Positions 4,260 to 34,400 of a stretch of DNA of 64,000 nt are shown piece by piece (the first letter of the stretch is position 1; each line of letters starts with the position of its first letter). The translations under genes were made by a program, and so were the position numbers. The stretch comes from Nemertoderma westbladi (lineage: Eukaryota > Animalia > Xenacoelomorpha), in contig JAUCBJ010005854.1 in NCBI GenBank assembly GCA_032718475.1, forward strand, positions 1 through 64,000, given 5' to 3'. The notes under the pieces are model-generated. The model was given only the letters and a program-made list of their open reading frames with translations. It was not told the origin of the DNA and did no database searches.

Positions 4260-4403
4260 ATGTACGGTGTAGTCCGGGTCTCTGTGGCATTATAGTTGGT
4301 ACAAACGCCACCGTTAAGACAAGGCATGTAGATGTCGCATTCGTCTATGTCTCTGCATAGCTTCGAACCAGATTCTATAACTTGCACGGCATTAATGGGG
4401 CAC
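4260..4403 (-). CDS. Cadherin exon 40 (calcium-binding EGF, incomplete)
   Basis: CPINA...LCRDIDECDIYMPCLNGGVCTN...PY|gtaagt; the domain continues in an exon not found in the window. Confidence 0.86.
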
Positions 4404-7400: not shown

Positions 7401-10400
7401 GTGAATTAGTGACATAGACCCCCTAATTTTGTTTACAAATCTTTAAGAGATTGTAAGAAATTTTAAAAACAAGAGACAGTTTCACCTCTTCAGAATGAAG
7501 CTGCCTTAGGGATGAAGAATAATTGCGTTGTAAGCTGTAAGGGTGTAACTGGTGCTGCTATATCGCTGAAGACACTTTTTTCAAACGCTTGTAGCTAAAG
7601 ATTGAAAGCGAAAATAAAAATTCTGACTCACCCACTAAGGAGGGGGGATATGAAACTATCTGTTTCAAATTCCATGCATAAGTATAAGATTAGTAGAAAA
7701 ATTTGGGGGTCCATCTCACTGAAATACGACAATATATTCCAGGACATGGGGTGTAGTTTACATTGTACAATGTAATGTTTGTTTGCTAGGAAGGTACTGG
7801 TACAACAACACTGTGTCTACCTACAGTGTATGCTATCTATATGGAATGAATTGTATTGTAGGCTTATCCCTAATACAGTAATATCAAAACTTCACTTTCA
7901 TAGATAATTTCCAAATTTCGCCAAAAATTCAAGCTTATTATTATTATTAATTAGGTTCGCCTTACAACCCTACATTCCCGCATTATGCTTTATAATTAGC
8001 CTAACTAATCGCATTAACTACCGGTAGCGGTAGCACTCAGCCATCTCGAAGAATTACATAATTACTTAGGCCTCATCAGTGATAAGAGTCAAGTGATGCG
8101 ATAGAATACGGTACCGCTGACTTACTGGCCTTACGAGTTAATTTTTCACGCGTGCAAGTGCAGTCATATGAAGAGTTTCATTGAATCCGTGGGTTACCCG
8201 GGGTCCCGACGCAGAGGTCTGCTACCGGCACCGGAGGTTGACCCCCTGTGCTGCTGCGAGTACATCAACCTGGAGGGCAACCGCTCCCACATCGTACAAT
8301 GCTGCTGCGACTGCGAGGCCCTGGACGGGGCGGTAGACCGACTGGTGCGCCGCCAGACCGTGGGAGCCGCCCACTGGGACGACGTTGTCTCGGTGGTCTC
8401 GGATCGGCTACGGATCCCGTGTATCGGCGGCGCTCGACGCCTCCCTATACAGGCCCTCGTCGCGTTCGCAGCGGTGGGACTTTCCTTACTCGCAGCATCC
8501 ACGGGCCCCGTCGCTCTCGTACTGACTCTACTATTCGCCAACTTGTCCTGCGGTTTTATATTCACTAGCTACGTACTTCTCCGTAAACGCAGCGACATGC
8601 TGCTATGGTTGTCCTTGTCGTGTCTCTGTTGGGCCTACATCCTCTTCCTATTGTACATCGCACCCGAGGCGAATCTCTCCCAACTCGATATCCTTGTACC
8701 GACCGTGTCTACCGGAGTTACCTTAATCCTCCTTTGGTTCATCAAGTTTCGCGATCCCGGGAAAGTTACAATAGATTCCTACGCGTTGCCAGAGAGACAG
8801 TCAGACCCACCCAATGCTAGCGGGTTGTACCAACCCAACGGGTCCCCGTACCAACCCCACGGTTTACACCCGCCCAACCAACCCATACTCAGACTCGGCC
8901 TGCGTGGTTGCCGTGGGACCCAACGACACTCCTGACGGCACCTGGTGCAGACACTGCCGCCAGAGGGCGCCACCCGGGGCCTCCCACTGTAAGATGTGCG
9001 CCCACTGCGTACACCGCCTGGACCACCACTGCCCCTGGCTTGACTGCTGCATAGGCGCGGGTAACCACAAGCAGTTCGTCATGTGTCTCGCCTCCTTCAT
9101 ACTCAGCTCTTCGCTCGGCCTGCGACACACCGTCCCAGTCCTATGGGCCCGCTCTTTCAAACAGAACACATCGGACCCTTGGAGCTCCGCCTCCCTCGCT
9201 CTCGCTATCGCCGCTATCTACATGACTTCCGCCTTCTCCGGGCTCCTACTATGGCAACTGTTTACGATATCCCGTAACATCCTTTGCGCGGAGTTGTTAT
9301 ACACGATCCAGACGGCCCGTTCGGCCAACCCCGAGATTCACCGCAGTATGGGCGCCTGGAGGTTCGGTCTGCACGTCATGCGAACCTACATTAGGACTAG
9401 AGATCGAGGGTTTATAACTAACTGGCGGCTATTTATTGCCGGTAGTAAGTCGAACTACCAAAGTGCTGCAACACTATCTCCCCGTGTCATCTACATGTGA
9501 ATGTGATGCGGTAGTCTATAATAATACCTCAGATGCTATTTTGTAATTAATTTATTAAACCGTAACTTATTAATCAACAGAGCGACGTTTGTTTATGCAA
9601 TTATAATTATAAAGTAACAGTGAAAACGATCATAAAATCTTCCTAACATTGAGTCACATTACAATAATCAAAATAAAGTTATAATTTCACTCCAATTTTG
9701 ACAAAATAGCCACATATATCACAGTATTTTACTTACTTTTGCTTTATTTTCTTTTAACTCCCGCCACTAAAGTGCCGTGACAACTCCCGCCAGTAAGTGC
9801 CGTAACAACTCCCGCCAGTAAGTGCCGTGACAACTCCAGCCAGTAAGTGCCGTAACAACACCCGCCAGTAAGTGCCCGTAACAACTCCCACCAGTAAGTG
9901 CCGTAACAACTCCCGCCAGTAAGTGCGTAACAACTCCCGTCAGTAAGTGACGTGACAACTCCAGCCAGTAAGTGCCGTAACAACACCCGCCAGTAAGTGC
10001 CGTAACAACTCCCGCCAGTAAGTGCCGTAACAACTCCCGCCAGTAAGTGCCGTGACAACTCCCGCCAGTAAGTGCCGTGACAACTCCAGCCAGTAAGTGC
10101 CGTAACAACACCCGCCAGTAAGTGCCGTAACAACTCCCACCAGTAAGTGCCGTGACAACTCCCGCCAGTAAGTGCCGTAACAATTCCCGCCAGTAAGTGC
10201 CGTGACAACTCCCGCCAGTATTGCCGTGACAACTCAAGCCAGTAGCGCCGTGACAACTCCCGCCAGTAGTGCCGTAACAACTCCCGCCAGTAGTGCGTAA
10301 CAACTTAAGCCAGTAGCGCCGTAACAACTCCCGCCAGTAAGTGCCGTAACAACTCCCGCCAGTAAGTGCCGTAACAACTCCCGCCAGTAAGTGCCGTAAC

Positions 10401-13400
10401 AACTCCCGCCAGTAGTGCCGTAACTAACTCCCGCCAGTAAGTGCCGTAACAACTCCCGCCAGTAAGTGCCGTGACAACTCCAGCCAGTAAGTGCCGTAAC
10501 AACACCCGCCAGTAAGTGCCGTAACAACTCCCGCCAGTAAGTGCCGTAACAACTCCCGCCAGTAAGTGCCGTGACAACTCCCGCCTGTAAGTGCCGTGAC
10601 AACTCCAGCCAGTAAGTGCCGTAACAACACCCGCCAGTAAGTGCCGTAACAACTCCCGCCAGTAAGTGCCGTGACAACTCCCGCCAGTAAGTGCCGTAAC
10701 AATTCCCGCCAGTAAGTGCCGTGACAACTCCCGCCAGTATTGCCGTGACAACTCAAGCCAGTAGCGCCGTGACAACTCCCGCCAGTAGTGCCGTAACAAC
10801 TCCCGCCAGTAGTGCGTAACAACTTAAGCCAGTAGCGCCGTAACAACTCCCGCCAGTAAGTGCCGTAACAACTCCCGCCAGTAAGTGCCGTAACAACTCC
10901 CGCCAGTAAGTGCCGTAACAACTCCCGCCAGTAAGTGCCGTGACAACTCCCGCCAGTAAGTGCGTAACAATTCCCGCCAGTAAGTGCCGTGACAACTCCA
11001 GCCAGTAAGTGCCGTAACAACTCCCGCCAGTAAGTGCCGTGACAACTCCCGCCAGTAGTGCCGTGACAACTCCCGCCAGTAGTGCCGTGACAACTCCAGC
11101 CATAGTACTGCCGTGACAACTGCCACCAGTAAGTGCCGGGACAACTCAAGCCAGTAGTGCCGTGACAACTCCCGCCAGTAGTGCCGTGACAACTCAAGCC
11201 AGTAGCGCCGTGACAACTCCCGCCAGTAGTGCCGTGACAACTCCCGCCAGTAGTGCCGTGACAACTCCAGCCATAGTAGTGCCGTGACAACTCCCGCCAG
11301 TAAGTGACGTGACAACTCCCCTCAGAGTGCCGTGACAACTCCCCTCAGAGTGCCGTGACAACTCCCGCCAGTAGTGCCGTGACAACTCCAGCCATAGTAG
11401 TACCGTGACAACTCCGGCCATAGTAGTGCCGTGACAACTCCCGCCAGTAAGTGACGTGACAACTCCCCTCAGAGTGCCGTGACAACTCCCCTCAGAGTGC
11501 CGTGACAACTCCCGCCAGTAAGTGACGTGACAACTCCCCTCAGAGTGCCGTGACAACTCCCGCCAGTAGTGCCGTGACAACTCCAGCCATAGTAGTGCCG
11601 TGACAACTCCCGCCAGTAAATGACGTGACAACTCCCCTCAGAGTGCCGTGACAACTCCCGCCAGTAGTGCCGTGACAACTCCCGCCAGTAAGTGCCGTGA
11701 CAACACCCGCCAGTAGTGCCATGAGAACTCCCGCCAGTAAGTGACGTGACAACTCCCCTCAGTAGTGCCGTGAAAACTCCCGCCAGTAGTGCCGTGACAA
11801 CTCCCGCCAGTAAGTGCCGTGACAACACCCGCCAGTAGTGCCGTGACAACTCCCGCCAGTAGTGCCGTGACAACTCCCGCCAGTAGTGCCGTGACAACTC
11901 CAGCCAGTACTTTCACAATAAGTAACTGTTGGTAATTTTTTATATTCAGTTGAGTGGGGTTATTTACCAAAGTTGAAACAACGGTAGTTAGAAATGTTAC
12001 ACGTACGTAGTGATTTTACGTGTCTTGGGAACTAACCTCTTAAATACCCCAACAATCCTTTGAACAGTACGACATTGGGCAATGTTGTGGCGCCGTGGTA
12101 TAAACGTATCGCTAGGCATGTTAACCTTGGCGCAATGGTCCAAAGTTAACGTCGCGAAAAGTTTCAATATAGTATCATCATTCTGGAATAAAAGAAGAAA
12201 CATATAATTTTACAATCGTAAACAGAGGTTTAAGTAAATAAACGATGGAAAGGAGCATGTTACAGTGGCACGTTATTCTAACAAAAACAATTAACGAAAG
12301 TCAGTTATTCTTATCTGCGCATCACACTAGGATTAGTTAGGCCTTTACATAACTACACGAAATTAATATTAAATTATTTAGACACGTAATGATATTTATT
12401 TGGAGTAGATTTATTATACATACCGCCTCTCCCGGCTGATCGTCTCGCCAGAACTCCAGCTCAACGTGGTGCCATTCGCCATCGTCCAGACTGTTCGTAG
12501 ACGACTTGGCCATAGTTATAACCGTAGTAAAGGCTCCCAGATTCACGAAGGCCTTCAGTTCAGCGTTGACCAACTCAAAGGCAACGAAATCTCTGGGTTC
12601 TTCGACGTGTTCGTGCATTTTACTCGTGCCATCTGTTCGTATCGCACCATCTGTTCATGCGAATAAAGGGGAAAAATTTAAATCTAAAATATGCTGAGTG
12701 GACACATAAAATGATACCGGATTTCACTAAACAACAGAAAAAATTTACATTTACACAATATTTCGACTTGCCGTTAGGGTCGTGACTGGGACCGCTGTAC
12801 ATAAGCAAGGCATCGGCGTCGTTCGTAGCGAAATCGAAAGATATCCTCGAGTTTTCAGCGTGGGATCCGCACGGGTTGATGGATGGGAACAAGGCGAATC
12901 CGCCCCGGTCGAATGTTCGGATAATAACCTCGCAGTTCGGGCCGAATTCAACCGGGTTACCGTCCTCCAGGCTCTCGGGACATACGCACCTAGAAATATA
13001 CAGCCACACAGTAGTAGAGCCTATAGCCTCAAGAAATACAGCCACACACAGTACAGCATAGACATAGAAAAATACAGCCACACACAGTACAGAATAGACA
13101 TAGAAAAATACAGCCACACACAGTACAGCATAGACATAGAAAAATACAGCCACACACAGTACAGAATAGACATAGAAAAATACAGCCACACACAGTACAG
13201 CATAGACATAGAAAAATACAGCCACACACAGTACAGAATAGACATAGAAAAATACAGCCACACACAGTACAGCATAGACATAGAAATATACAGCCACACA
13301 GTAGTAGGGCCTATAGCCTCAAGAAATACAGCCACACACAGTACAGCATAGACATAGAAATATACAGCCACACAGTAGTAGGGCCTATAGCCTCAAGAAA

Positions 13401-16400
13401 TACAGCCACACACAGTACAGCATAGACATAGAAAAATACAGCCACACACAGTACAGCATAGACATAGAAAAATACAGCCACACACAGTACAGCATAGACA
13501 TAGAAAAATACAGCCACACAGTAGTAGGGCCTATAGCCTCAAGAAATACAGCCACACACAGTACAGCATAGACATAGAAAAATACAGCCACACACAGTAC
13601 AGAATAGACATAGAAAAATACAGCCACACACAGTACAGCATAGACATAGAAAAATACAGCCACACAGTACAGAACCTATAAATATACAGCCACTGAGACA
13701 GTATAGCCTTAGAAATACAGCCACACACAGTACAGCATAGACATAGAAATATACAGCCACACAGACAATACAGCCTTAGAAATACAGCCACACACAGTAC
13801 AGCATAGACATAGAAAAATACAGCCACACACAGTACAGCCTTAGAAATACAGCCACACACAGTACAGCATAGACATAGAAATATACAGCCACACAGACAG
13901 TACAGCCTTAGAAATACAGCCACACACAGTACAGCATAGACATAGAAAAATACAGCCACACACAGTACAGCATAGACATAGAAAAATTCAGCCACACACA
14001 GTACAGCATAGACATAGAAAAATACAGCCACACACAGTACAGCATAGACATAGAAAAATACAGCTACACACAGTACAGCATAGACATAGAAATATACAGC
14101 CACACACAGTACAGCATAGACATAGAAATATACAGCCACACAGTACAGAGCCTATAAATATACAGCCACTGAGACTGTACAGCCTTAGAAATACAGCCAC
14201 TCAGACAGTACAGCCTTAGAAATACAGCCACACACAGTACAGCATAGACATAGAAATATACAGCCACACACAGTACAGCATAGACATAGAAAAATACAGC
14301 CACACACAGTACAGCATAGACATAGAAAAATACAGCCACACACAGTACAGCATAGACATAGAAATATACAGCCACACAGTACAGAGCCTATAAATATACA
14401 GCCACTGAGACTGTACAGCCTTAGAAATACAGCCACTCAGACAGTACAGCCTTAGAAATACAGCCACACACAGTACAGCATAGACATAGAAATATACAGC
14501 CACACAGTACAGAACCTATAAATATACAGCCACTGAGACAGTACAGCCTTAGAAATACAGCCACTCAGACAGTACAGCCTTAGAAATACAGCCACACACA
14601 GTACAGCATAGACATAGAAAAATACAGCCACACAGTACAGAACCTATAAATATACAGCCACTGAGACAGTACAGCCTTAGAAATACAGCCACTCAGACAG
14701 TACAGCCTTAGAAATACAGCCACACACTCCAGCACCTAGAAATACAGCCACACACTCCAGCACCTAGAAATACAGCCACACACAGTACAGCATAGACATA
14801 GAAAAATACAGCCACACAGTACAGAACCTATAAATATACAGCCACTGAGACAGTACAGCCTTAGAAATACAGCCACTCAGACAGTACAGGCTTAGAAACA
14901 CAGCCACACACGCCAGCATCTAGAAATACAGCCACACACTCCAGCACCTAGAAATACAGCCACACACAGTACAGCATAGACATAGAAATATACAGCCACA
15001 CAGTACAGAACCTATAAATATACAGCCACTGAGACAGTACAGCCTTAGAAATACAGCCACTCAGACAGTACAGGCTTAGAAACACAGCCACACACGCCAG
15101 CATCTAGAAATACAGCCACACACTCCAGCACCTAGAAATACAGCCACACACAGTACAGCATAGACATAGAAAAATACAGCCACACACTCCAGCACCTAGA
15201 AATACAGCCACACACAGTACAGCATAGACATAGAAAAATACAGCCACACAGTACAGAACCTATAAATATACAGCCACTGAGACAGTACAGCCTTAGAAAT
15301 ACAGCCACTCAGACAGTACAGCCTTAGAAATACAGCCACACACAGTACAGCATAGACATAGAAAAATACAGCCACACAGTACAGAACCTATATATATACA
15401 GCCACTGAGACAGTACATCCTTAGAAATACAGCCACTCAGACAGTACAGCCTTAGAAAAACAGCCACACACTCCAGCACCTAGAAATACAGCCGCACACT
15501 CCAGCACCTAGAAATACAGCCACACACAGTACAGCATAAGCAAGCAAAAGCAAAGCAAACAGTCGGCCGAAGCCGGAGCGGAGGCGACCCGAAGGCTCCT
15601 CTTTCGATAGCTGCTACCCGAGGGTAGGGGTGGTCGCTACTCCTATCCCAAGATTTGCTCCCAGTTATTTAACTGGTACTCATTTAGTACAGCATAGACA
15701 TAGAAAAATACAGCCACACAGTACAGAACCTATAAATATACAGCAACTGAGACAGTACAGCCTTAGAAATACAGCCACTCAGACAGTACAGCCTTAGAAA
15801 TACAGCCACACACTCCAGCACCTAGAAATACAGCCACACACTCCAGCACCTAGAAATACAGCGACACACAGTACAGCATAGCCATAGAAAAATACAGCCA
15901 CACAGTACAGAACCTATAAATATACAGCCACTGAGACAGTACAGCCTTAGAAATACAGCCACTCAGACAGTACAGCCTTAGAAATACAGCCACACACTCC
16001 AGCACCTAGAAATGCAGCCACACACTCCAGCACCTAGAAATACAGCCACACACAGTACAGCATAGACATAGAAATATACAGCCACACAGTACAGAACCTA
16101 TAAATATACAGCCACTCAGACAGTACAGCCTTAGAAATACAGCCACTCAGACAGTACAGCCTTAGAAATACAGCCACACACTCCAGCACCTAGAAATACA
16201 GCCACACACTCCAGCACCTAGAAATACTGCCACACAGTACAGTACCTAGAAATATACAGCCACACAGTACAACAGCACCTAGAAATACAGCCACACACTC
16301 CAGCACCTAGAAATACAGCCACACAGTACAGCACCTAGAAATATACAGCCACACAGTACAACACCTAGAAATACAGCCACACACTCCAACAGCACCTAGA

Positions 16401-19400
16401 AATACAGCCGCACAGTACAACAGCACCTAGAAATACAGCCACACAGTACAACAGCACCTAGAAATACAGCGACACACTCCAGCACCTAGAAATTCAGCCA
16501 CACAGTACGAGTACAGCACCTAGAAATACAGCCACACAGTACAGCACCAAGAAATACAACCACACAGTACAACAACACCTAGAAATACAACCACACAGTA
16601 CAGCAGCACCTAGAAATACAACCACACAGTACAACAGCACCTAGAAATACAGCCACACAGTACAACAGCACCTAGAAATACAGCCACACAGTACAGTACC
16701 TAGAAATACAGCCACACAGTACAACAGCACCTAGAAATACAGCCGCACAGTACAACAGCACCTAGAAATACAGCCACATAGTACAACAGCACCTAGAAAT
16801 ACAGCGACACACTCCAGCACCTAGAAATACAGCCACACAGTACAGCACCTAGAAATATACAGCCACACAGTACAACACCTAGAAATACAGCCACACACTC
16901 CAACAGCACCTAGAAATACAGCCGCACAGTACAACAGCACCTAGAAATACAGCCACACAGTACAACAGCACCTAGAAATACAGCGACACACTCCAGCACC
17001 TAGAAATTCAGCCACACAGTACGAGTACAGCACCTAGAAATACAGCCACACAGTACAGCACCAAGAAATACAACCACACAGTACAACAACACCTAGAAAT
17101 ACAACCACACAGTACAGCAGCACCTAGAAATACAACCACACAGTACAACAGCACCTAAAAATACAGCCACACAGTACAACAGCACCTAGAAATACAGCCA
17201 CACAGTACAGCACCTAGAAATACAGCCACACAGTACAACAGCACCTAGAAATACAGCCGCACAGTACAACAGCACCTAGAAATACAGCCACATAGTACAA
17301 CAGCACCTAGAAATACAGCGACACACTCCAGCACCTAGAAATTCAGCCACACAGTACGAGTACAGCACCTAGAAATACAGCCACACAGTACAGCACCAAG
17401 AAATACAACCACACAGTACAACAGCACCTAGAAATACAACCAAACAGTACAACAGCACCTATAAATACAGCCACACAGTGCAACAGCACCTAGAAATACA
17501 GCGACACACTCCAGCACCTAGAAATACAGCCACACAGCACAGCCTTAGAAATACGGCCACACAGTACAGCACCTAGAATTACAGCCACACAGTACAACAG
17601 CACCTAGAAATACTGCCACACAGTACAACAGCACCTAGAAATACAGCCACACAGTACAACAGCACCTAGAAATACAGCCACACAGTACAGCACCTAGAAA
17701 TACAGCCTCACAGTACAACAGCACCTAGAAATACAGCCACACAGTACAACAGCACCTAGAAATACAGCCACACAGTACAACAGCACCTAGAAATACTGCC
17801 ACACAGTACAACAGCACCTAGAAATACAGCCACACAGTACAGCACCTAGAAATACAGCCTCACAGTACAACAGCACCTAGAAATACAGCCACACAGTACA
17901 ACAGCACCTAGAAATACAGCCACACAGTACAACAGCACCTAGAAATACTGCCACACAGTACAACAGCACCTAGAAATACAGCCACACAGTACAACAGCAC
18001 CTAGAAATACTGCCACACAGTACAACAGCACCTAGAAATACAGCCACACAGTACAACAGCACCTAGAAATACAGCCACACAGTACAGCACCTAGAAATAC
18101 AGCCTCACAGTACAACAGCACCTAGAAATACAGCCACACAGTACAACAGCACCTAGAAATACAGCCACATAGTACAGCACCTAGAAATACAGCCTCACAG
18201 TACAACAGCACCTAGAAATACAGCCACACAGTACAACAGCACCTAGAAATACAGCCACATAGTACAGCACCAAGAAATACAGCCACACAGTACAGCACCT
18301 TGTAATACGGCCAATAACCAGGGCACCTAATAACTAAAATAAACAAAATATTTAAATATCTTCAAAAATAAATTTGAGGCCAAATTACCTGTAACCATCG
18401 TATGTGTCCTCGCATGTTCCACCATTTTTGCAAAATGGTCCTTGTGAGCATTTGGGTCGGTGAGGGGGGGTATTGAAATCGAGGGCAGCACAACGGCATT
18501 CCGCTTCAAACCAGGTAAAAATTCCAACCAACCTGAACAGTCACAATAATTCAAACGTTGAAATTGATAAATAAGTATTTCATTGAATTTTTAAGTTACA
18601 TTTAAAATCATTTTCGTACACAGCGTAACAATAATGAGACCCGGGATAAAACTGCAGTGATGTAGGTAAAACGATAATCGAATTAAGTGTAAAAAAAACA
18701 TAAAACCAACCAGGTTTAACGGTGCCATACAACTGGAATTCCTTGCAGAGACCAAATCGACTATATTCATTACTCATAATGCTTTATGTAAATTGGATTC
18801 AAAAAGGGAACGGATGATGAAATAAGTAAAAAATAAAAAACTAACGTTTTGGCTCCCGAATCGACGACTTGCGGACTTTCAACATTGATATTTTGTTTGT
18901 TGTAACAACTCTTATCTTTGCATGTCTGTTCTTTAACGCATTTATTGATGTTAATCGTATCAATAGATAGACCGACTTCATTTTGGACCTAAGATGTTTA
19001 TTAATTGTGGAGATGATTAGTTTGGCGAATAAGTGTCACGCGCGTGTCATTCATTAATTAATGGGGTTTTAACGAATTTATAATTTATCTTGTATACTAA
19101 ATCACCGATAACTAAAGTAGCAGATCAATAAAGTAACCGAAAAATAAAGTCACATAAGTATTATAGGAAAGTAACCGATCGGTGAAATATAGCCGAAAAA
19201 TATAGTTATAAATTAGAGATAAATATCGTAGAAAAAAGTTGATTAAGTTGAGATTAAATATTTATACTTTGAAAAACATAGTAACCGATAAATATTGTAA
19301 GCAATCAAATAAAGTAACTGATCAATAAAGTAATCGATCTATAAAGTGAGCGATCTATAAAGTAACTGATCAATAAAGTAAGCGATCTATAAAGTGAGCC

Positions 19401-22400
19401 ATCTATAAAGTAACTGATCTATAAAGTAAGCGATCTATAAAGTAAGCGATCTATAAAGTAAGCGATCTATAAAGTAAGCGATCTATAAAGTGAGCCATCT
19501 ATAAAGTAACTGATCAATAAAGTAATCGATCTATAAAGTGAGCGATCTATAAAGTAACTGATCAATAAAGTAAGCGATCTATAAAGTGAGCCATCTATAA
19601 AGTAACTGATCAATAAAGTAAGCGATCTATAAAGTAAGCGATCTATAAAGTAAGCGATCTATAAAGTAAGCGATCTATAAAGTAAGCGATCTATAAAGTA
19701 AGCGATCTATAAAGTAACTGATAAATAAAGTAAGTTTTTGGTTTCCGAAAAAAAGAATCCGACCAAAAGTAAATATAAAAACTCAGTGCCGCAAAATAAA
19801 TAACCATACAATCCTGTTGTAACTATATAATTTATTATAATGTTAATGTAGAGTCATCAATTAAGTATTAGTTTAAGGGTGAGGCAACAATGAAATTAGA
19901 AAATTAATAGAAAACACAATGATGGAGCCATTAAGAAGACATGGAATCCACGTTTTTTCCTCTATAACAATGGCTTCGAGGAAAAAAATGATTTCATATG
20001 TTCTTTTAGATGCTCCTTACAACCAGTGCAAACAGGAGTAATTACAGTACATAAATAGTCGGCAATTAAATTGAGTTAAATTAAATATGTAAATATCAGA
20101 AAAATAGGAGTAAAACCATGCAAGCGAAATATGATAGGAAAACGGAGATCATGAAATAAATGGTTTTGCGGGGTGCAAGATGGTAGGCCCTATAATCATG
20201 CAGCCAACAACTTGAGCAACAAAATATCGATAATACTGAAACACCTAACACCATCCTGCATGCAATGACAGTTCGGAAGTCATCGGAAATCATCACGAAG
20301 ACAAGGTGATCGAGTAACAACAGTCCATGTTACGTTAAACTAACTATATTTGGTAACGAAGAAATCATTGTGACTGAGTCTTCTAAGATAGGTAACATGC
20401 AACAGTCGTTTCGCTCTCATCAGCCATGCAAAAGGTACTGCATTACCAATAGATCTTCTGCGCTGCACATCATTTTGTAGAATGTCATCATTTTATTAAT
20501 AAATTGCAAACGGCAATAGTTTGCTTACAGTTTACCGCCCACCAACACAATATATTCACAGAACAACAAATAAGCAACTCGGCGCTTTCAACCAATCAAT
20601 ATTGGGGACTCTTTAACCCATAGCCCACATTGGACCAATCAACGCAAGGAACAGTTTGCTGCAGACTTTATAAGGCATTGAAATATCACCAACCAATCAG
20701 CGGTTTAGCATTTGGTTATTTGTGTGTTTGTTACCATGGTAATGCAGCACTAACCTCGGCCCATCGGGTCTCCAACATTCCCATAAGTCCTACCTCAACC
20801 CGATTCTGGTAAATTTTACCATTAAGAACCGACGAATCATAATAGGGCGAGCCGTGGGCAGCAAAATAAACGTCGACGTAACTCGGCTTAACTGGTCCTC
20901 TTGGCGTGTAATAGGAAACAACTTCTTGACTATTATCCAATTGGACATCCTGAACAAAACGAATATTTAATTATGTTAAATTTTACTTACTATTCACTCC
21001 CTAAGACTATTTGATCACATTACCGCGGTGGTTTCGCGAATTGAAGATTAACATTATCCATTTCAAACTATTATGATTTTTAAATTAGCATGTAAAATAT
21101 TTACCGTTAAACATTGTAGATGGCTTTATAGACGCCAAACTAACACGCCCAACTCACTGTATGAGATACCAACCTGCACTGAGAATATATCGACGTTGTT
21201 CACATCGGTGTCGAGGTACCTCGATAACAGAAGCCGCAATCTGTCGTAGTAACTATCTCCTCCCATCCCGGTAGAGATAAAGTCCGCTGCGGTTACGCCT
21301 AGAAGACAAATAATGTGTGTTCATTAGAAATCGAAACTATTTTCATATGCGTTAAATTTTGGAGATGTAAGGCTGATGATATATTATCAACCGAATACGA
21401 CGATAATAAAAACTGTTCCTCGAAATTAACTGATCGCCTCTCAGTTGCTCCTCAGTCTCAAACGGGCGGATATTCTATATGTTCAACACATCCCGAATTA
21501 AATTACAGTAAATGTGACATGGAAACAGAATGACTAACGGCATATTGAACCGAAACTAATAGAGTAAGTTCAACTCACCACTAAAGCGAATAGTTCCTGC
21601 GTTGTATACGGCGTCGTCACCCAGTTCAACGACCCGCAGTACAACGGTAGAAGTGGCAGAACCAAATTGGGCGTCAGTTACGGAAACTCCGAATGTATAA
21701 TCACCGGGAGGGACACTCCAATCCTTAATAACTATTTTACCTGGAAATATAAAGGGAAATATGGAGGTAAATAAGATAAATCCTGATTTAAACTAAAGCG
21801 ATCTGGTCCTAAAAATATGCATAAAATAAAAGTTGAAAACAAAACCTTATATTATTATAATTTTATCAGGAATAAGTTAAAGATGAAAAGGGGAAATTAG
21901 AAGGAGTCGTTCTTATTTACATTTACAAAGGAAACATCTAATAAGAATAGCGGTAAGAATGTTTAAGCAACAAACAAACCTGTAGTGAGAACCCTAAAGT
22001 ATTTGGAAACGGTTTCGTTGTTGGAAGTATCCATTTCATAGGTAAAGTCAGACAGTTTCGCGTCATCCAAATCCTCGACAAATACTCCGCCGATAGATGT
22101 TTGCGCTGAAACAAATAATAAAATAATCGTATAACTGTATCGTTGGACCATTAAACGAAATGACGGTACACTGTTCTGTTACGGAGCCCCTAAGGGGACA
22201 TCCCTATCTCAATATATTGAGATAAACCGAATTTTGTTTTGTTGTGTTCTGCGATAAACTCACCTACTCCCGCATAACAGATGTCGCATGTTCGTCTACA
22301 CGAACTTCTTCTGTTGTCATCGTTACCAGCACTACAGAATCCTCTCTGCTTCCAGTACGCGCATTTGGTATCCTTGTCAACGCAATCTAAACGAAAAATT

Positions 22401-25400
22401 AATAAATTAAAATTAAAATTAAAATTAAAATAATACAATAGTAAAAGATTGCTTTTACTAAAATACTAGAATAATGGATAAAAATAGATACAGCTTGATA
22501 ATTTATAATTATATACACGTATTAGTAAATAAACTATAGAAAACTATAATAAGCACTGGTTCCTCATTATGGTAAAACAAGACAAACATTCTGTGTTCCG
22601 ATAATCACAGCCGACAACATTTGCATTAATTTATCTATTGAGGGAAAGGAACAGGTTACAGCAGTGGTAGACTATTCTAACCAAAATAATAAACGAGAGC
22701 ACATGCTTCCGTCTCAATTGTGTTGTCGTCGGTTATCGGCATAGCGTTTACATCCAGTTCACTTTCACCAGGACTATAATAATCGTACTGGAACCGTTGT
22801 ACGGGTCAGAGTAAAACGCGGATCCGGATCAGGATCCGGATTCTATCATTTAACATTGTCCCTATGGAAGTCGACTGAATTTACATTTTTAGGGTGTAAT
22901 CTGCGGATCCGTGCACTGCTAAATTTACCGAATCCGTAACCGAGTGTAAAATGCGGATTGGCCTTTTTTTCAGATCCGGAACGGAGTGTAAAGCGCGGAT
23001 TCATGTTTTAGGCTAAATCCTGAACGGAGTGTAAAACGCGGATTCATTTTTCTACTGAATCCGGGATTGGGTGTAAAATACGGATTCAGGTTTATTACAA
23101 AGTTTTATTAAATCCGGGAAGGGGTGTAAAATGCGGATTCAAGTTAATTACCATGTTTTATTGGATCCGGAATGGAGTGTAAAACGCGGATTCTATCTAG
23201 TTAATTACCAAGTTTTGTTGGATCCGGAATGGAGTGTAAAACACGGATTTACGTTAATTATCAAGTTTTATTGGATCCGGAATGGAGTGTAAAACATGGA
23301 TTTACGTTAATTACCAAGTTTTATTGGATCCGGAATGGAGTGTAAAATACGGATTTACGTTAATTACCAAGTTTTATTGGATCCGGAATGGAGTGTAAAA
23401 CACGGATTTACGTTAATTATCAAGTTTTATTGGATCCGGAATGGAGTGTAAAACACGGATTTACGTTAATTACCAAGTTTTATTGGATCCGGAATGGAGT
23501 GTAAAACACGGATTTTCGTTAATTATCAAGTTTTATTGGATCCGGAATGGAGTGTAAAACACGGATTTACGTTAATTACCAAGTTTTATTGGATCCGGAA
23601 TGGAGTGTAAAATACGGATTTACGTTAATTACCAAGTTTTATTGGATCCGGAATGGAGTGTAAAACACGGATTTACGTTAATTACCAAGTTTTATTGGAT
23701 CCGGAATGGAGTGTAAAACACGGATTTACGTTAATTACCAAGTTTTATTGGATCTGGAATGGAGTGTAAAATACGGATTTACGTTAATTACCAAGTTTTA
23801 TTGGATCCGGAATGGAGTGTAAAACACGGATTTTCGTTAATTACCAAGTTTAGTTGGATCCGGAATGGAGTGTAAAATACGGATTTACGTTAATTACCAA
23901 GTTTTATTGGATCCGGAATGGAGTGTAAAACACGGATTTACGTTAATTACCAAGTTTTATTGGATCCGGAATGGAGTGTAAAACACGGATTTACGTTAAT
24001 TACCAAGTTTTATTGGATCCGGAATGGAGTGTAAAACACGGATTTACGTTAATTATCAAGTTTTATTGGATCCGGAATGGAGTGTAAAACACGGATTTAC
24101 GTTAATTACCAAGTTTTATTGGATCCGGAATGGAGTGTAAAACACGGATTTACGTTAATTACCAAGTTTTATTGGATCCGGAATGGAGTGTAAAACACGG
24201 ATTTACGTTAATTACCAAGTTTTATTGGATCCGGAATGGAGTGTAAAACACGGATTTACGTTAATTATAAGTTTTATTGGATCCGGAATGGAGTGTAAAA
24301 CACGGATTTACGTTAATTATCAAGTTTTATTGGATCCGGAATGGAGTGTAAAACACGGATTTACGTTAATTACCAAGGTTTATTGGATCCGGAATGGAGT
24401 GTAAAATACGGATTTACGTTAATTACCAAGTTTTATTGGATCCGGAATGGAGTGTAAAACACGGATTTAAGTTAATTATCAAGTTTTATTGGATCCGGAA
24501 TGGAGTGTAAAACACGGATTTACGTTAATTACCAAGTTTTGTTGGATCCGGAATGGAGTGTAAAACACGGATTTACGTTAATTACCAAGTTTTATTGGAT
24601 CCGGAATGGAGTGTAAAACACGGATTTACGTTAATTACGAAGTTTTATTGGATCCGGAACGGAGTGTAAAACACGGATTTATGTTAATTACCAAGTTTTA
24701 TTGGATCCGGGAAGGGGTGTAAAACGCGGATTCAAGTTAATTAGTAAGTTTTAATGATCAATTTGTAAAACGCGGATTCAAGTTAATTAGTAAGTTTTAA
24801 TGAACAATATTTAAAACGCATATGCAATAAAGACCCAGACCCTCATCTAGTTGCAATTATTAATTAGTGCAATGTTTATTGTTCTTTAGTAACTTTTCTT
24901 GGCTTGCTGACTTTCCTGGTTTTTTTCTTCTCCGGACTCGGGGTGCACGATGTTTGCGTAGTAAGTTCAAGCGGCTCAACAATGGCTGTATCATTGGTTG
25001 GACTCGGAATAACGAATCCCGTAAATGGAACCTTTACAAAGTCATCACTTTCATCCATGTTTAATAAGAAATTAAATAAGAAATTATACTGAACAGTTCA
25101 GCCTCCATAAATTACGAAGGCAGCACGCTTGCAAGGCCTTAAATAGAGTACGCTATGATGCAGTACAAACTACCGCCAGCTAGGCAGAACATTGATTCTT
25201 GTTTGTAAGGGAGGTTGGGATGGATAAGCCAATCAGGGAACAGGACAATAATCCTACCATACAATTGTCTACAGAGCCGCTCTACCAGAGAGGTCACGTT
25301 CCCACGGTAGTAGTTTTTCAGCTAATCAATATCTAATAATGTCTGACGGCCAAACATCACCATCGCCCTAATTAATAATTCATTGGGAAGCATTGACCCC

Positions 25401-28400
25401 TATTAAGGTGTCCCCCAGAGCCGGATTAAGCTTATGTGTGGCCCCTAGACATAGACAAATTATTAAGGTGTCTATTAACTATTAAGGTGTCCCCCATTAA
25501 TGTTTGTGTCCCCCATTAATGTTTGTGTCCCTCATTAATGTGTGTCCCTCATTAATAGTTGTGTCCCTCATTAACAAACTCAGTAATTAACGTAAATCCG
25601 CATTTTACACCCCTTCCCGGATCCAGTAACACTTTGTAATTAACCTGAATCAATCTGCGTTTTACACCCCTTCCCGGATCTAGTAACACTTGGTAAATAA
25701 ATTGAATCCGCGTTTTACACCCCTTCCCGGATCCATTAAAACTTGGTAATTAACGAAAATCCGTGTTTTACACTCCATTCCGGATCCAACAAAACTTGGT
25801 ATTTAACGAAAATCCGTGTTTTACACTCCATTCCGGATCCAACAAAACTTGGTAATTAACGAAAATCCGTGTTTTACACTCCTTTCCGGATCCAACAAAA
25901 CTTGGTAATTAACGAAAATCCGTGTTTTACACTCCATTCCGGATCCAACAAAACTTGGTAATTAACGAAAATCCGTGTTTTACACTCCTTTCCGGATCCA
26001 ACAAAACTTGGTAATTAACGAAAATCCGCGTTTTACACTCCATTCCGGATCCAACAGAATTTGGTAATTAACGAAAATCCGTGTTTTACACTCCATTCCG
26101 GATCCAACAAAACTTGATAATTAACGAAAATCCGTGTTTTACACTCCATTCCGGATCCAACAAAACTTGATAATTAACGAAAATCCGTGTTTTACACTCC
26201 TTTCCGGATCCAACAAAACTTGGTAATTAACGAAAATCCGTGTTTTACACTCCATTCCGGATCCAACAAAACTTGGTAATTAACGAAAATGCGTGTTTTA
26301 CACTCCTTTCCGGATCCAACAAAACTTGGTAATTAACGAAAATCCGCGTTTTACACTCCATTCCGGATCCAACAGAATTTGGTAATTAACGAAAATCCGT
26401 GTTTTACACTCCATTCCGGATCCAACAAAACTTGAAAATTAACGAAAATCCGTGTTTTACACTCCTTTCCGGACCCAACAAAACTTGGTAATTAACGAAA
26501 ATCCGCGTTTTACACTCCATTCCGGATCCAACAAAACTTGATAATTAACGAAAATCCGTGTTTTACACTCCTTTCCGGACCCAACAAAACTTGGTAATTA
26601 ACGAAAATCCGCGTTTTACACTCCATTCCGGATCCAACAAAATTTGGTAATTAACGAAAATCCGTGTTTTACACTCCATTCCGGATCCAACAAAACTTGA
26701 TAATTAACGAAAATCCGTGTTTTACACTCCATTCCGGATTCATTAAAATTTGGTAATTAACGTAAATCCGTATTTTACACTCCATTCCGGATTCACAAAA
26801 TATATGAATCCGCGTTTTACACTGCAATACGGATTGCGTATTTCAGAATCCGCATATTACACTCAGTTACGGATTGTATGTAAATCCGGATCCGCCTTTT
26901 ACACTCGCAAATCCGGGTCCTGATCCGTATCCGGATCCTGAATCCGGATCCGGATCCGCGTTTTACACCTACCCCCGTTGTACCCCGTAGGGTACTAAAG
27001 TACGATATAAATGTGTCTTGAGTAGATACAGCGCCTGATTGGTGGCGCAGGTTCAAATCCTGCTAAAGTCTACATAAATTCCACACATTTGAGTCCCTGG
27101 GCGAGAAGACACTTTAGCTTTATACAAAACTCCAGGTACAATAGGAACATATGGCACATCTAATTCTTTTAATGATTAACCACTGGTTTAATACTATCAA
27201 ACTATGGGTTTTTTATACTATTAAACTATGGGTTTTTTTAATGATTAACCGCAGGTTTAATACTATTAAACTATGGGTTTTTAATGATTAACCACAGGTT
27301 TAACCGTTTAATACTATTAAACTGTGGGTTTTTAATGATTAACCAAAGGTTTAATACTATTAAACTATGGGTTTTTTTATTGATTAACCACAGGTTTAAT
27401 ATTATAAACTATGGGTTTTTGTTCTATAACCAGAGGTTTAAAATAATTGAAGCTTCGGTAAATGACGATTATTTATCCAAATTTACCACCGGTTGTTGAA
27501 CCGCCAGTTGAACTGAAAATTAAACCCCCAGTTTTCTTAGAAATAAAACTGCCGGTTTCGCAAAAAACCCCCGATGAATTTGGTTGCAGAGTTAACCGGG
27601 GTTTTTTTTGCGTAAACCGGCAGTTTTTTTTAAAATAACCCGGGTTGTGTTTTTTCAGTGTACTGAGTCAGTAAAGTGTGTGCTGGGGCCCTGGATCTCT
27701 AAGTGCGCCCGTATTACAAGTAGTCCAGTTCGCACTAACCTTTCCGGTATTTATATATGTTGATGACTTTACTTCCACTGTAATGCTTTTGGTCGTTGGT
27801 GTCCCCGACCTTTACTGTGAGTGTCGAGGTGCCTGTTAATGAAGGACTCCCTTTGTCGTTTATTCGGACGTCCAGTTTATAAGAATCCAACATTCTATCA
27901 TCCACTGTCTCTTCTCGGTCCAACGAAGCTCGTGTGTTAAGGGTAGCCGTTCCATCTGGAAAAATAGAGTAGGACACTTTCTTTAACAACGGAGAAAAAT
28001 AATAAGACGATCTCCATCATGCCACAACCGGTTATGGGGTGTTTTTTCAGCAGAACACTGTGTAGCAAGGGATCATCGGAGAAGAATTATCATTATAGAT
28101 TAAGTGGAGGGTCGTAACATGCCACACAGAATCATAGAGTTGAAACAAACTAAAGTGGAAAAAGGTTTGACTCATTGTTGGAGGTTGGTATCTTTATAGA
28201 CCCCAACTGTATACCGGTAGTATAGCTAACCTCTGTTATCTTTCAGCGAGAATTTATCCGTGTGTGTGAGCAGCGCGAATGGGAATGGACAAATGTAGCT
28301 GTTGGATGTAGAGGAAGCAGCGCCCCCAGCCGGCGTCTCGGAGCACCCGTTGGTTATCGGATGATCAAAATCCACGGCGCTAACCAGACTCGCTGAAAAA

Positions 28401-31400
28401 TAATATTATTGGTGTTATCGATATCCCAGGCGGTCGGCAGCTCCAAACCAAAACCCAGTAAGTACATTTTTTGACTTTTCGAGATAATCGCGTTTAAAGT
28501 TTTTGGACTTTAAACAGCTGGCATTTGGTTAAAACTTAATTTGATGAGTTATAATAATTTTGTGTACCTCTACAAATTGTACATATATATTAGTGCCAAA
28601 ACTTTTCTTATAAATCGACTTACACGGTTTTGGTCTGGTAGAAAAGAAAACAATTGTGAATTTTGATGCATCAATACACAGTAACGTCATGATTCCCATT
28701 TCAAAACACAGTAACTAATTTGCCCACACCAAAACCCAGTAAACTAACATTTTAACTTTTCCAATCAGTTACCTTTCCCACACCAAAACCCAGTAAACTA
28801 ACATTTTAACTTTTCCAATCAGTTACCTTTCCCACACCAAAACCCAGTAAACTAACATTTAACTTTTCCAATCAGTTACCTTTCCCATGCCAAAACCAAG
28901 TAACTGACAAGTCCCTTCGCCAAAACCCAGTAACTTTGACTTCCTTCGCCAACGGTTAGCGAAAACAAAGAGGCAACATTCTAGAATATAATATTCTAGA
29001 ACATTTAATTATTTGTCATAGTATCTGCATTCGGGAAATCCCACGTCAAAACCCAGTATATCAAACTGCTAGAAACCCAGTAACTCTGTTTACTGGGTTT
29101 TGACGTGGTAAATCTGACATTGACAATATACATACTGGGTTTTAACTTGGACAATTTGTCTTTCGGAAACGATACTCGATTTTGTTCAGAAAATACCAGG
29201 TGAAAACACAGTAAAGAATTTTGCTCGAAACCCAGTAAAGTGCAGTTACTGGGTTTTGGCGTAGGATTTTGGGATTTTTGAACATAAACTGGGTTTTGAT
29301 GGAGTAACTTTTTCAAAATAACACCAGAAAGGATAAACGAAACCCAGTAACTAGCATTACTGTGTTTCGACGTGGTATTTGGCTATTTGCTCTAAATTAG
29401 CTAATTAGTTAATTAATTAATTGTTAATACTGCGAAATCGGTTAGTGCTATGGTTTCGAAACTGAGTCAGATGAATTCTACGCCCCCAAAAACCCCAAAA
29501 ATCGAAACACACTGGGTTTTGGTGTGGAGCTGCCGCGGTGCTGAATGCTCCATTTAAACTTACTTGGGCTCCCAGACGGTGCTATATGCTCCATTTAAAC
29601 TTACTTTGGCTCCCAGAAGGTGCTGTATGCTCCATTTAAACTTACTTTGGCTCCCAGAAGGTGCTGTATGCTCCATTTAAACTTACTTTGGCTCCCAGAC
29701 GGCGCTGCATGTTCCATTTAAACTTACTTGGGCTCCCAGACGGCGCTGTATGTTCCAAAAATTCGAAGTTATAAAACTGATCAAAAGTCGGATAGTTGTC
29801 ATTAATATCATCTATGATCACCTTGAACGAAGATTTTCCAAATTGCGTTGGATTTCCTGAAACATTTACAAAGAGAAATGGAGTCAGTTCAACCAACCAA
29901 TAAATCAGGTATGTGTGCAGGGTGCAAACCATACCATGGCCGCCCGAACGAGTGAGTCAGAAGCATATATTATTGTCCTTCGACATACATTATACGACGT
30001 CCATTTGGGATCATCATTGCCGACTTTGCAAAGCTGTGCCCAACAAAAGTTATAATAATATGAAACCACTCACCCAAAACACCAATAATAAATTATACCT
30101 TTTGACACACCAAAAAAATTGAAAACGGTCCTGTAGTATAATTATCTCCATAATGACATGCTTCCGGAAAATAAGATTATCTCAAATTAATCCCTCTTTC
30201 CCTTTCCCGCTAATTAAAAATCACGTTAAGATTTGATGTCGCCCTACAATAAGTTGTTGCGTCTCCAACTACAATAATTCCAACATAATACCAACACGGA
30301 GAAAGGAAGTCAGGAAGATACCGGAAATTCGATGTAAAACAAGTTGCGGACAACAAATAGCTAAGCTAGACGAGGTTATCGGAGCCAATAAACTCACCGG
30401 TGTCTATGGCGAGTATAACAAGCTCCTGAGTCCGCGTTGTGTTCCTATAATCCTCCTGGCCCGCGGGTAACATCTCCCTGTCTAATCGTTTACGCGTCCG
30501 AACTATACCCTTCCAAGGGGACGAGGGACTCGGGACCACCTCGTACATATTCTGTACGTCCGAGTCGTATGCAATCCTAAAACTGAGATCAAAAAAGATT
30601 TAAAATTAATGAACGCAGCCTCTTATAATAGGGAAGGGGATAGCTTGTTTTTGAAAATATAAATTTGAGGCAGTTTTTCCCTCAATGAGGTCATTTTATA
30701 TGAAATTTCCCAAGGCCGAAATTAATCTAACACTTAGGAGCCTATAATTAATTAACTAATTAATACAATATTAATTAATATAACCAATTAATTATTAATT
30801 AAATTAATACTTACTTAATCCTTTGTTGCCCCCCTTCGTCTATATCGCGAGCTTCTACCTCCCCTAGAACTGTACCCGGTGCTACATTCTCAAATACTAC
30901 CTGAAATACAAAAAAATTAAATAACTTATCAATTTCGCAGTTCTTTTTAACCCTTAAACTGCGGTGACAATTTTTCTAAAACGCCATCTCCACTTGGTGA
31001 AAACTCAAATATGAGTTTTGCGATTGTTAGTTCTACTTGGTGGGAATTATTGATGAAATCTATTCTGACTTGGTGAAAACTCATATGAGTTACAGTTAAA
31101 CCGGTCTGACTTAGTTCCAACTCACACATGAGTTTCGGCTATACTATTGTTTATCAGCTGTCAGAAAGGAAGCATTGACTTATATGTCGACGACAATTAA
31201 TAGGCCCATTGTATTGGGCAGTTGATAAGCTTTATAACAGTAGTTGAATCGGCACCAGACGATTACTGCATGCTAAATAAACTACGCGGTAGTATGTATT
31301 CCAAACTGATATAATTCCGCATTCAATTCATAACTTTACATAACAATTTTTAAACTTTATCAAGTAGAAGAAAAACTCTCACCAAGGAGGAATAACAGAA

Positions 31401-34400
31401 AAATATAACCTCTACCAAGTCAGGACGATTGCTGCTCATAAACTCAGTTATGAGTTTTCACCAAGTCAAACGCTTCTTCTTAAAAAAGACCCACCAAGTG
31501 GCAATAGTCTTGCGAGAACTCATATTTGAGTTTTCATCAAGTAAGACACATCCATTAAAAAAATCCACACCCAGTGGAATTGGAACTGCCAAAACTCATA
31601 TGAGTTTTCACCAGTTTAAGGGTTAATGATCATCGGCACTTCAGACTAGTGTTACAACGGGATCGGGATCCACAATTTTCGGGCTTCGGTATCAGGATTG
31701 CAACTGTCGGGATCCCGATTTTCGGGATCGTGATAAATTTTATTGCGGCCATACTCATCCAAAACTTTAAGTAGCTCTCTGCCCTGCCCTCTTTGTAGGA
31801 GTAATATATATCTTTCGAGAATTCTCATGTACTAAAAAATTGTCCACGTCTTTTTTTCAAATTGTTCACAGACGTAGTTTATTTCCCACGTACGTATCAT
31901 TTTCCCTTAAGTTTTTAATATAATTTCTGCAACATTTTTAATACTACTGCAGTCTGACTGAATCGCTGCAACAATTCTATAATATAATCGGCCTGCTGCA
32001 TTGAAGCGGCTACATTGAGATGCTGTGCTGGGTCAGAGTAAAACGCGGATCCGGATCAGGATCCGGATTCTATCATTTAACATTGTCCCTATGGAATCAA
32101 ATCCGTAACCGAGTGTAAAACGCGGATTGACCTTTTTTCAGATCCTGAACGGAGTGTAAAACGCGGATTAACCTTTTTTTCAGATCCTGAACGGGTCTAA
32201 AACGCGGACTCATATTTCTAATGAATCCGGGATTGGGTGTAAAATACGGATTCAGGTTAATTACAAAGTGTTAATGGATCCGGGAAGGGGTGTAAAACGG
32301 GGATTCAAGTTAATTTGCCAAGTTTTATCTAATACCTTGACAGACAGAACACTGGACAGACAGAAAAACAGATAGACAGACATAGTATTAGTTTTTGTTA
32401 AAAGTAAAAACTGACGGGGGAAATGAAATCACTAACCAGGATAACCGCGCCATATCAAAACTTTTAGCTTGGTTGAATTCTTTCCTTATATTTTGACAGA
32501 CGGGCATACTGATAAACCGACAGACAGACGTAATAGACTTCGCTAAATATGAAACTGCCATCGGAAATAAAATCGGCGACCAGGAAAACTACAACAAAAG
32601 GTATTAGCTTCGTCGTATGATGTGACTGCGGTGAAGATGGAGTGGTTGAAATAACTGGAAGGTGAAGTTGTTGTTGGAACTGGGGTTGGTATGGTCGTGG
32701 ATGTGGGATGGTATGTATGGGCGACGAACCAAATGGAGCAGATATTCCACCGGACCTTGAAGATTTAGATATTCTGAACATAAATATACTATAGGTCCAG
32801 CTATTAGACGAGATGTTGCTGAAATGGATGTTACTTCAATCCCAGAAGTTGATACTAGTAATTCTAGAAAGAGACGTGCCGATTCCGCGGTCAGCTCCTG
32901 CAGTCGTAACAGTAGTATTGATGATCCTGACTTTACCGATTGGTCGGCATCTGAAGATTCCGACAATGAACATGCAAGCAAATCTACTAAAAAAAAGCGA
33001 TGCCGTTCCTATATGAGTGCTGATAACCTCCACAGGCACGTTACCAAGGAGCTGTCAGAGATGAAGAGCGTTTATGATTTTCAAGATTTCAAATGCTGTA
33101 TCAGGAAAGCTGCTAATTAGAAATCGGAAATAAAGACAATGTCACGTGATGACTTTCCAGATTGGAAAGATGAAACGTCGAAGGCGAAGCTTAAATCAAG
33201 TCGATTTCCCTTACTTGAAATCTATTGGATAGCCTTGCGGTTCGAAAAGGGTAGTAAGTTGATCCAGTTTAAGAAGGACCAAGAACCAATACGTCGTCTA
33301 GGACCAATAATGCTTAATAATAAATACCTTTACTTTTTGTATTTATTTGGGAAGGAATTAATTTTAGTCACCTCATCATTCATCATTTTGACTTCTTGTT
33401 GACATGGCAATACACCCCAACTCCAGCAAGCTCTAAACTAATAATACGTGATACAAAATGCTCTACAAAACATTCTGGCAGAACAAAAAATCACTGTTTT
33501 ATACTAGTTTCTATGAAACCAGAACCATTGGTTAAACACCCTATCTCGAACAAATCAGCTTACATTGAATGGCAAAACACCCTAATAATTTTATTTCATC
33601 AGTTTTAATCCCATTTTCGTCATTACTCACCATCTATTATATTAAAAAATTCGAAGTTGGCGTGTTAAGTTTCCTTAGGACCCATTAGCAGCGGTTTCTC
33701 ACAATGTTTTGTATGCTTAAACAGGGGAAACGCGTTTTGGTTAATTTCTCAAATTGTGTTTTTTTTAGGATAGGGTGCATTGGCAGACAAAACAATGGCA
33801 GACCACTAGAATGCATCACCGACCGGTGTCGTACAAAATCGCTTAAAAAATGACCAGTTTTACGATGTCCGGCAAGTCTCATATGTTCAATGTTGTGCAC
33901 GCAGGGTAGTGCTGGGTTTCAGAAATTGTCAATAACTGCCGAGAATGCTTAACAAAGACAGTTTACTGGAGATTTTATTATACAAACATTATATTAAATA
34001 ACAAAATAATAATTACTATCATATTCTAATTAGTCAATATAACACAACTTACCTGGCTCCATTGAACTGGTACTTTAAACTTTGGGACCTCGTCATTAGA
34101 GTCGATGACTCGGATCGTTAAGGGAACCTCGCTCCTGAGTCCCGGGGGTCTGGAACCTTGGACGGAGCTATCGGTGACCTCCATGGTCAAGTCGAAAGAT
34201 CGGATCTGATGAAAAAAAAAATAATACATTAATAATAATTAAGAAATATTTAGTTGTATATATAGTTTGGTGCAAAATGGATAGTGTGTGTTAATGGTGA
34301 AATAAAAAGTATATATTTTTGAAAAATGTTCATGTTATTCTTTGTACAAGTTTTATTGTGAACCCTAATAATGTTGTGGGGCGAGCCACGCAGTTAGGGC

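Follow-up and report, generated by a model that had tools for sequence, protein, structure and literature searches.

Is a ShK-toxin (ShKT) domain truly encoded within a classical cadherin in the 64-kb stretch of DNA analysed here (the window), and if so, how did it get there and what could it do? An earlier note on this sequence had described a 123-nt exon with good splice sites and a complete six-cysteine ShKT domain, and had placed it in phase 1-1 between two cadherin exons. Both parts of this description were borne out. The exon lies on the minus strand at 22264..22386, is open throughout and is bounded by AG and GT. The cadherin exon upstream of it (27740..27955, minus strand), which encodes the final part of the last EC repeat together with the first NC residues, ends in phase 1, i.e. 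after one base of a codon; the exon downstream (21980..22105, minus strand), which encodes the B strand of the cadherin-like sandwich of NC, needs phase 1 and begins with two bases of a codon. On balance, we consider it reasonably probable that this intact exon was shuffled into a phase-1 intron, is mostly spliced in and adds a surface-loop knob to the NC domain, where it would serve for accessory binding or packing and not for blocking channels.

The ShKT exon and its splicing signals

The borders of the exon are those of the domain: the six-cysteine domain occupies 22384-22277, with one residue before the first cysteine and a tail of four after the last. The cysteines of the product follow the spacing C-x6-C-x8-C-x11-C-x3-C-x2-C, and the Pfam ShK profile named in the earlier note, PF01549, matches it with 31 bits (E 3.9e-7, profile positions 2-37 of 37; cutoff 20.9 bits). 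When all six frames of the window were scanned for the ShK spacing, this exon was the sole match, a pattern that arose once in 60 locally shuffled windows, and no second copy of the exon was found elsewhere in the 64 kb.

We scored the splice sites with profiles trained on 28 homology-supported exons of the cadherin gene, leaving the ShKT exon out and scoring the true acceptors leave-one-out. The T-rich acceptor tract ending in AG (22387..22440, minus strand) reached 14.1 bits, a score higher than those of all 2926 decoy AGs and of 25 among the gene's 28 true acceptors. The donor GTGAGT (G|GTGAGT; 22258..22263, minus strand) scored 8.4 bits, which is the median of the true donors and is equalled or bettered by 14 of 4850 decoy GTs. 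Both are the top-scoring sites in the 5.6 kb separating the flanking exons, the donor being the best in 27739-22106. An alternative donor 4 bases upstream (22268, 4.7 bits) was rejected as weaker and frame-shifting. Among 14 open phase 1-1 intron candidates the ShKT exon ranked first, and the candidate in second place turned out to be a genuine cadherin exon previously overlooked. The three-periodic coding score of the exon, 0.119, is mid-range for this gene, whose 28 other exons run from 0.035 to 0.246, and only 1 of 3000 random intronic 120-mers scored as high; another frame of the exon is likewise coding-positive (0.109).

Could these sites serve a transcript other than that of the cadherin? 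Neither a signal-peptide or first exon in the upstream intron nor a separate terminal exon in the 158-nt intron behind the ShKT exon (22106..22263, minus strand) was found, be it for a separate ShKT transcript or for a secreted precursor of its own, and the acceptor nearest to the ShKT donor is the cadherin's own, 158 nt off. As partner exons of either kind and any further copy within the window are missing, a transcript that uses the ShKT sites would be a cadherin transcript, and the exon is predicted, from its splicing signals, to be part of the cadherin mRNA. That it is instead a stranded relic, or a piece of another transcript outside the cadherin mRNA, we regard as improbable. The exon is absent from every homologue examined, polar residues precede its fourth cysteine, and a frameshifted neighbouring gene in the assembly indicates that decayed sequence occurs here; against this, none of the six cysteines has been lost, and the frame and the two splice sites have stayed intact amid satellite-filled introns, in addition to the absence of partner exons and copies. 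An assembly chimera seems scarcely credible: the exon does adjoin a satellite-rich intron, but it is unique sequence 158 nt from a cadherin exon, its phase and strand are right, and its sites fit the splice profile of the gene.

The upstream intron (22387..27739, minus strand; 5353 nt) consists mostly of two 53-bp satellite arrays (23059-24753 and 25576-26800), and no other credible exon was found in it. A 60-codon ORF (25058-24879) was considered as a cadherin exon and rejected, having no Pfam match and ending in a stop. The two arrays are oppositely oriented and enclose a unique 0.7-kb island (24820-25580), possibly a transposon remnant, which has short repeats at its ends and harbours this ORF, whose last part is a basic stretch.

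The host gene and the site of the insert

The EC-repeat exons of the host gene occupy 28231..62252 of the minus strand, and the gene goes on past 63000, off the upper end of the window. Collinear tblastn matches to six type III cadherins give the domain order EC repeats, NC, EGF, LamG, EGF, LamG, EGF, the last five being encoded at 4260..18532 (minus strand) with homology matches in the same order. This corresponds to the type III layout, EC repeats followed by NC-CE1-LG1-CE2-LG2-CE3 (PMC5473995). Further NC exons lie on the minus strand at 21579..21740 (end of the cadherin-like sandwich), 21174..21298, 20794..20949 and 18846..18988, of which the latter three match Pfam Ig_Shg at profile positions 22-59, 69-99 and 102-136, each alone under the curated cutoff. 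Exon 20949-20794 retains the cleavage motif Gly|Ser-Pro-Tyr-Tyr of DN-cadherin, the cleaved chain of which begins S-P-Y-Y-K (PMC8325961). The chain of 29 exons from 62252 to 18389 is free of stops both with the ShKT exon (1518 aa) and without it (1477 aa); no transmembrane or cytoplasmic exons were found from 4260 to base 1 of the window. Type III cadherins have 14-17 EC repeats, and the modelled chain covers part of this gene. The 34 aligned homologues are 29-35% identical to it, none being close. Judged by its layout, its NC cleavage motif and these identities, it can be classed as a divergent member of the type III classical cadherins; a role at adherens junctions, as the earlier note has it, is conjectural, the catenin-binding exons lying outside the window.

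With Drosophila DN-cadherin, spider Pt1/Pt2, sea-urchin LvG and the 'neural-cadherin-like' proteins of molluscs and fish (PMC5473995), the window gene shares the series from EC repeats through NC to EGF and LamG domains, the start of NC and the cleavage motif. It differs from them in that it alone has a complete ShKT domain in the first NC loop, together with extra insertions in the last EC repeats. There are three of these other insertions, of 6-11 residues. The last-EC-repeat exon at 28231..28392 (minus strand) carries a second loop insertion, rich in Ser, Ala and Gly and closed by two cysteines, at a place where homologues have a short Asn-Gly-Pro-Pro-Phe; two lophotrochozoan rows of the published alignment show Cys-rich loops in the same EC repeat (PMC5473995).

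Where in the protein does the ShKT domain sit? The earlier note had it inside the membrane-proximal EC repeat. By family nomenclature the site belongs to the NC domain and not to an EC repeat proper, given that, in the published alignments (PMC5473995, supplements 5 and 12), NC starts at the Gly-Ser-Lys motif shortly ahead of the ShKT insertion. The insertion point is ~12 residues into NC, in its N-terminal cadherin-like part; EGF, LamG, EGF, LamG and EGF, five domains in all, lie between it and the membrane. The ShKT site is on the membrane-distal chain, ~170 residues ahead of the NC cleavage site; cleavage of NC is dispensable in DE-cadherin and has no known function (PMC8325961).

In an AlphaFold model of a mosquito homologue (P0003, 34-row alignment), the equivalent site is a six-residue surface loop (264-269) between strands 254-263 and 270-274, with pLDDT ~89-92. 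The isolated ShKT exon, modelled from its single sequence, formed two helices at a mean pLDDT of only 58.6, and a fold search with this low-confidence model returned unrelated rows (Z <= 3.0) and no ShKT chain. The first and last cysteines of ShKT domains are bonded together, which brings entry and exit side by side and makes the fold suited to insertion into a loop. The domain would probably form a small disulfide-bonded knob on the NC surface loop, at the neck of the membrane-proximal globule.

Origin and inclusion of the exon

Is the ShKT insertion found in other cadherins? A cysteine-pattern scan and phmmer detected no ShKT domain in 162 distinct homologous proteins, which were mostly from arthropods but also from molluscs, one annelid, one hemichordate, fishes and birds, with cnidarians, echinoderms, xenacoelomorphs and the majority of small phyla hardly represented. 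PF01549 was likewise absent from the 58 proteins of one homologue set and from 120 listed of the 574 in another, and the fetched DNA of 46 related metagenome loci held no ShK-spaced frame. Searches with single window exons recovered no close relative (one unrelated beetle cadherin; 12 matches elsewhere, mostly short fragments and one mosquito cadherin; 0 of 499 candidates). The statement in the earlier note that ShKT is not known from classical cadherins thus agrees with the homologues, the loci and the literature searched, in which we found no report of a cadherin-ShKT fusion, subscription journals and the InterPro and SMART architecture tables being outside that scope. None is described in the parts of PMC12549020, PMC3534327 and PMC10734073 that were consulted; in the main text, ShK occurs 0 times in PMC5473995 and PMC10734073, and cadherin 0 times in PMC6409789. 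Taken singly, the domain, its host family and the way it was gained are familiar; it is their combination, seen in one genome, that is apparently undescribed.

The introns of related loci bear on the origin of the exon. Three metagenome loci that are near-identical to each other (L043-L045), and a fourth (L038) on its donor side only, have a phase-1 intron within the same Gly codon as the window gene, apart from a difference of one additional residue upstream; the downstream exon of the window gene (21980..22105) has three codons fewer ahead of the conserved Ile-Gly than L043-L045. In loci of arthropod type the intron either is missing or is in phase 0 and lies one base earlier, immediately ahead of the conserved Gly. 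Since an empty phase-1 intron occupies the same site in two independent sequences, the ShKT exon appears to sit in an old, normally empty phase-1 intron. We consider exon shuffling into this pre-existing intron of a type III cadherin gene the likely origin, as the earlier note had proposed; an intron at the same place in these two sequences, which are unrelated and of non-arthropod type, is what exon shuffling predicts. EGF, kringle, Kunitz and similar modules are extracellular class 1-1 units spread by exon shuffling. Like them, the ShKT exon is symmetric in phase 1, encodes a single domain and occupies a pre-existing phase-1 intron; it differs in being inserted in a loop within a domain, the usual place being between domains.

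Two side observations concern the same site. Where NC starts, the arthropod-type loci L014, L021-L034, L039 and L040 have an intron in phase 0, and the non-arthropod-type loci L038 and L043-L045 have one in phase 1, a base later, which makes a one-base intron slide possible. A hemichordate homologue (P0067, near residues 1515-1540) and a sea-slug homologue (P0090) have insertions here of 20 and 12 residues, respectively, which are not ShKT and are perhaps gene-model errors at an intron or hidden small exons.

Is the exon part of every cadherin mRNA, or is it switched? The earlier note argued that the symmetric phase would let it be included or skipped. Both forms are indeed free of stops (27740>22386 with 22264>22105 when included; 27740>22105 when skipped), but symmetry says little about regulation here: 19 of the 29 exons in the chain are symmetric and the six around the ShKT site are all in phase 1-1. 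The loop length was also compared. The pattern was recognized in 155 homologues (it missed 7 of 162); in 152 of these, 27 residues separate the DxND linker from the conserved Ile-Gly, the other three having 30, 39 and 47. In the published rows, counted by eye, the distance is 27, 28 or 30 in 20 of 20 (PMC5473995). In the window gene, the skipped form would have a spacing of 25, with the usual Gly replaced by Ala, and the included form 27 plus an insert of 39 residues. Across 50 other length-invariant segments the window gene is shorter in six, by two residues in one and by one residue in five.

The strength of the splice sites and the skipped loop being the shortest seen lead us to somewhat favour routine inclusion, as far as predicted splicing can tell, over a regulated cassette that would yield tissue- or stage-specific isoforms with and without the knob. 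Cassette exons tend toward weaker splice sites, and those of the ShKT exon are at or above the strength of constitutive exons in the same gene. A cassette nevertheless keeps a minor share of our expectation: besides the two stop-free joins, the exon length is a multiple of three, many N-cadherin isoforms are listed for fly and beetle, and four of the 46 loci (L016-L019) have a spacing of 26 residues without the Gly, so that the skipped loop of 25 may fold. Under routine inclusion, the ShKT exon would be spliced into most mRNAs.

The possible role of the domain and its genomic surroundings

Does the domain act on K+ channels, as the earlier note suggests? ShK blocks channels via Lys22-Tyr23, MMP23 has Arg-Leu at these positions, and the Lys-Tyr dyad is neither necessary nor sufficient (PMC6409789, PMC5793123). 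Among solved structures, the MMP23 toxin domain (2k72, E 0.017) comes closest in sequence to the window domain. The Arg-Leu positions of 2k72 align with Asp-Asp in the window domain (Asp-Asn when counting back from the fourth cysteine), and its loop between the third and fourth cysteines is acidic or polar at the dyad positions and contains no Lys and no aromatic residue. Before the fourth cysteine the window domain is polar, whereas MMP23 and the worm peptide 2mcr are hydrophobic, a difference that could reflect relaxed selection. As the Lys-Tyr pair is absent, along with the Arg-Leu pair of MMP23, the suggestion of K+-channel binding by the toxin mechanism is not supported, and a role as pore blocker or channel binder is unlikely.

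With the sea-anemone toxins ShK and BgK the window domain shares the cysteine spacing (BgK, 1bgk, is a weak match, E 1.6), but it lacks the Lys-Tyr dyad and is not a free secreted peptide. With the MMP23 toxin domain and the ShKT modules of enzymes, which include astacins, peroxidases, tyrosinases and prolyl hydroxylases (PMC5793123), it shares the six-cysteine framework, an Asp after the first cysteine, a Trp after the second and a larger extracellular host; it differs from them in its location within a loop of an adhesion receptor's domain, where those modules lie between or behind the domains of an enzyme, and in lacking the Arg-Leu of MMP23. Release as a free secreted peptide was rejected: a dibasic Arg-Lys precedes the domain, and no second site follows it. 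A dibasic site before the domain is also found in some toxin precursors.

Could the domain still be a tethered ligand through which the cadherin is linked to Kv channels in cis, in the way that the toxin domain of MMP23 modulates Kv1? The similarity to 2k72 speaks for this reading, as do several Lys and Arg residues elsewhere in the domain, since alternative basic residues might block channels (PMC6409789). However, the positions of the MMP23 Arg-Leu hold Asp-Asp or Asp-Asn, the site is five domains away from the membrane, and several ShKT peptides show no activity on Kv channels, whether they carry the dyad or not (PMC5793123). We therefore rate such a ligand as decidedly improbable, and rate no higher its combination with splicing, i.e. 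a splice-switchable tethered ShKT domain that binds or regulates K+ channels in cis. If true, it would provide a direct link between adhesion and the excitability of the membrane, be it at junctions or at synapses.

Instead, an accessory module for cis-binding or packing is, on sequence grounds, the most likely role of the ShKT knob. In DN-cadherin, EC1-EC11 form the trans-adhesive unit and the membrane-proximal part a globule (PMC8325961); a knob on NC would lie outside this unit and would act in cis or on neighbours in the matrix or membrane, rather than on homophilic specificity. It is also plausible that the domain is a nearly neutral passenger, since the gene accepts other insertions nearby. 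Among bilaterian cadherins, type III is regarded as ancestral, and the variants known of it have mostly lost domains (PMC5473995). A foreign domain gained within NC would indicate that this region can accept a module, and would offer a natural probe of the role of the membrane-proximal globule; it would also make an adhesion receptor one more host of the ShKT fold. The weight of the case is limited by a single genome, a promiscuous domain and a gene tolerant of nearby insertions.

Further repeats and genes lie within the cadherin gene. A 5.3-kb satellite (12991-18313), built of 31-36 bp units of which the 31-bp one occurs ~150 times, fills the intron that precedes the exon at 12989; its minus-strand unit resembles the acceptor region of that exon, with a decoy acceptor, at 18326, opening the array. 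A 41-bp repeat in 5.4 copies (29536-29757) reiterates the end of exon 29856-29728 together with its donor GTAAGT, which creates several decoy donors. Large intronic satellites also occupy 9756-11909, 38000-44200 and 55700-59950, comprising a 25-bp unit in 88 copies as well as GC-rich and 36-bp arrays. The last visible cadherin intron holds two intronless ORFs, one on the cadherin's strand for an RWD-domain protein of 188 aa (3447-4013, minus strand) and one on the opposite strand for a choline-transporter-like protein of 467 aa with a Thr/Ser-rich N-terminus (177-1580, plus strand). An intronless DHHC palmitoyltransferase-like gene (8168-9500, plus strand) lies antisense within a cadherin intron and is split into two overlapping frames around a short repeat at ~8810-8930, by either a frameshift or an assembly slip. 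Reverse-transcriptase-like reading frames inside another stretch of cadherin intron (60700-62000, minus strand) presumably belong to a LINE-type element.
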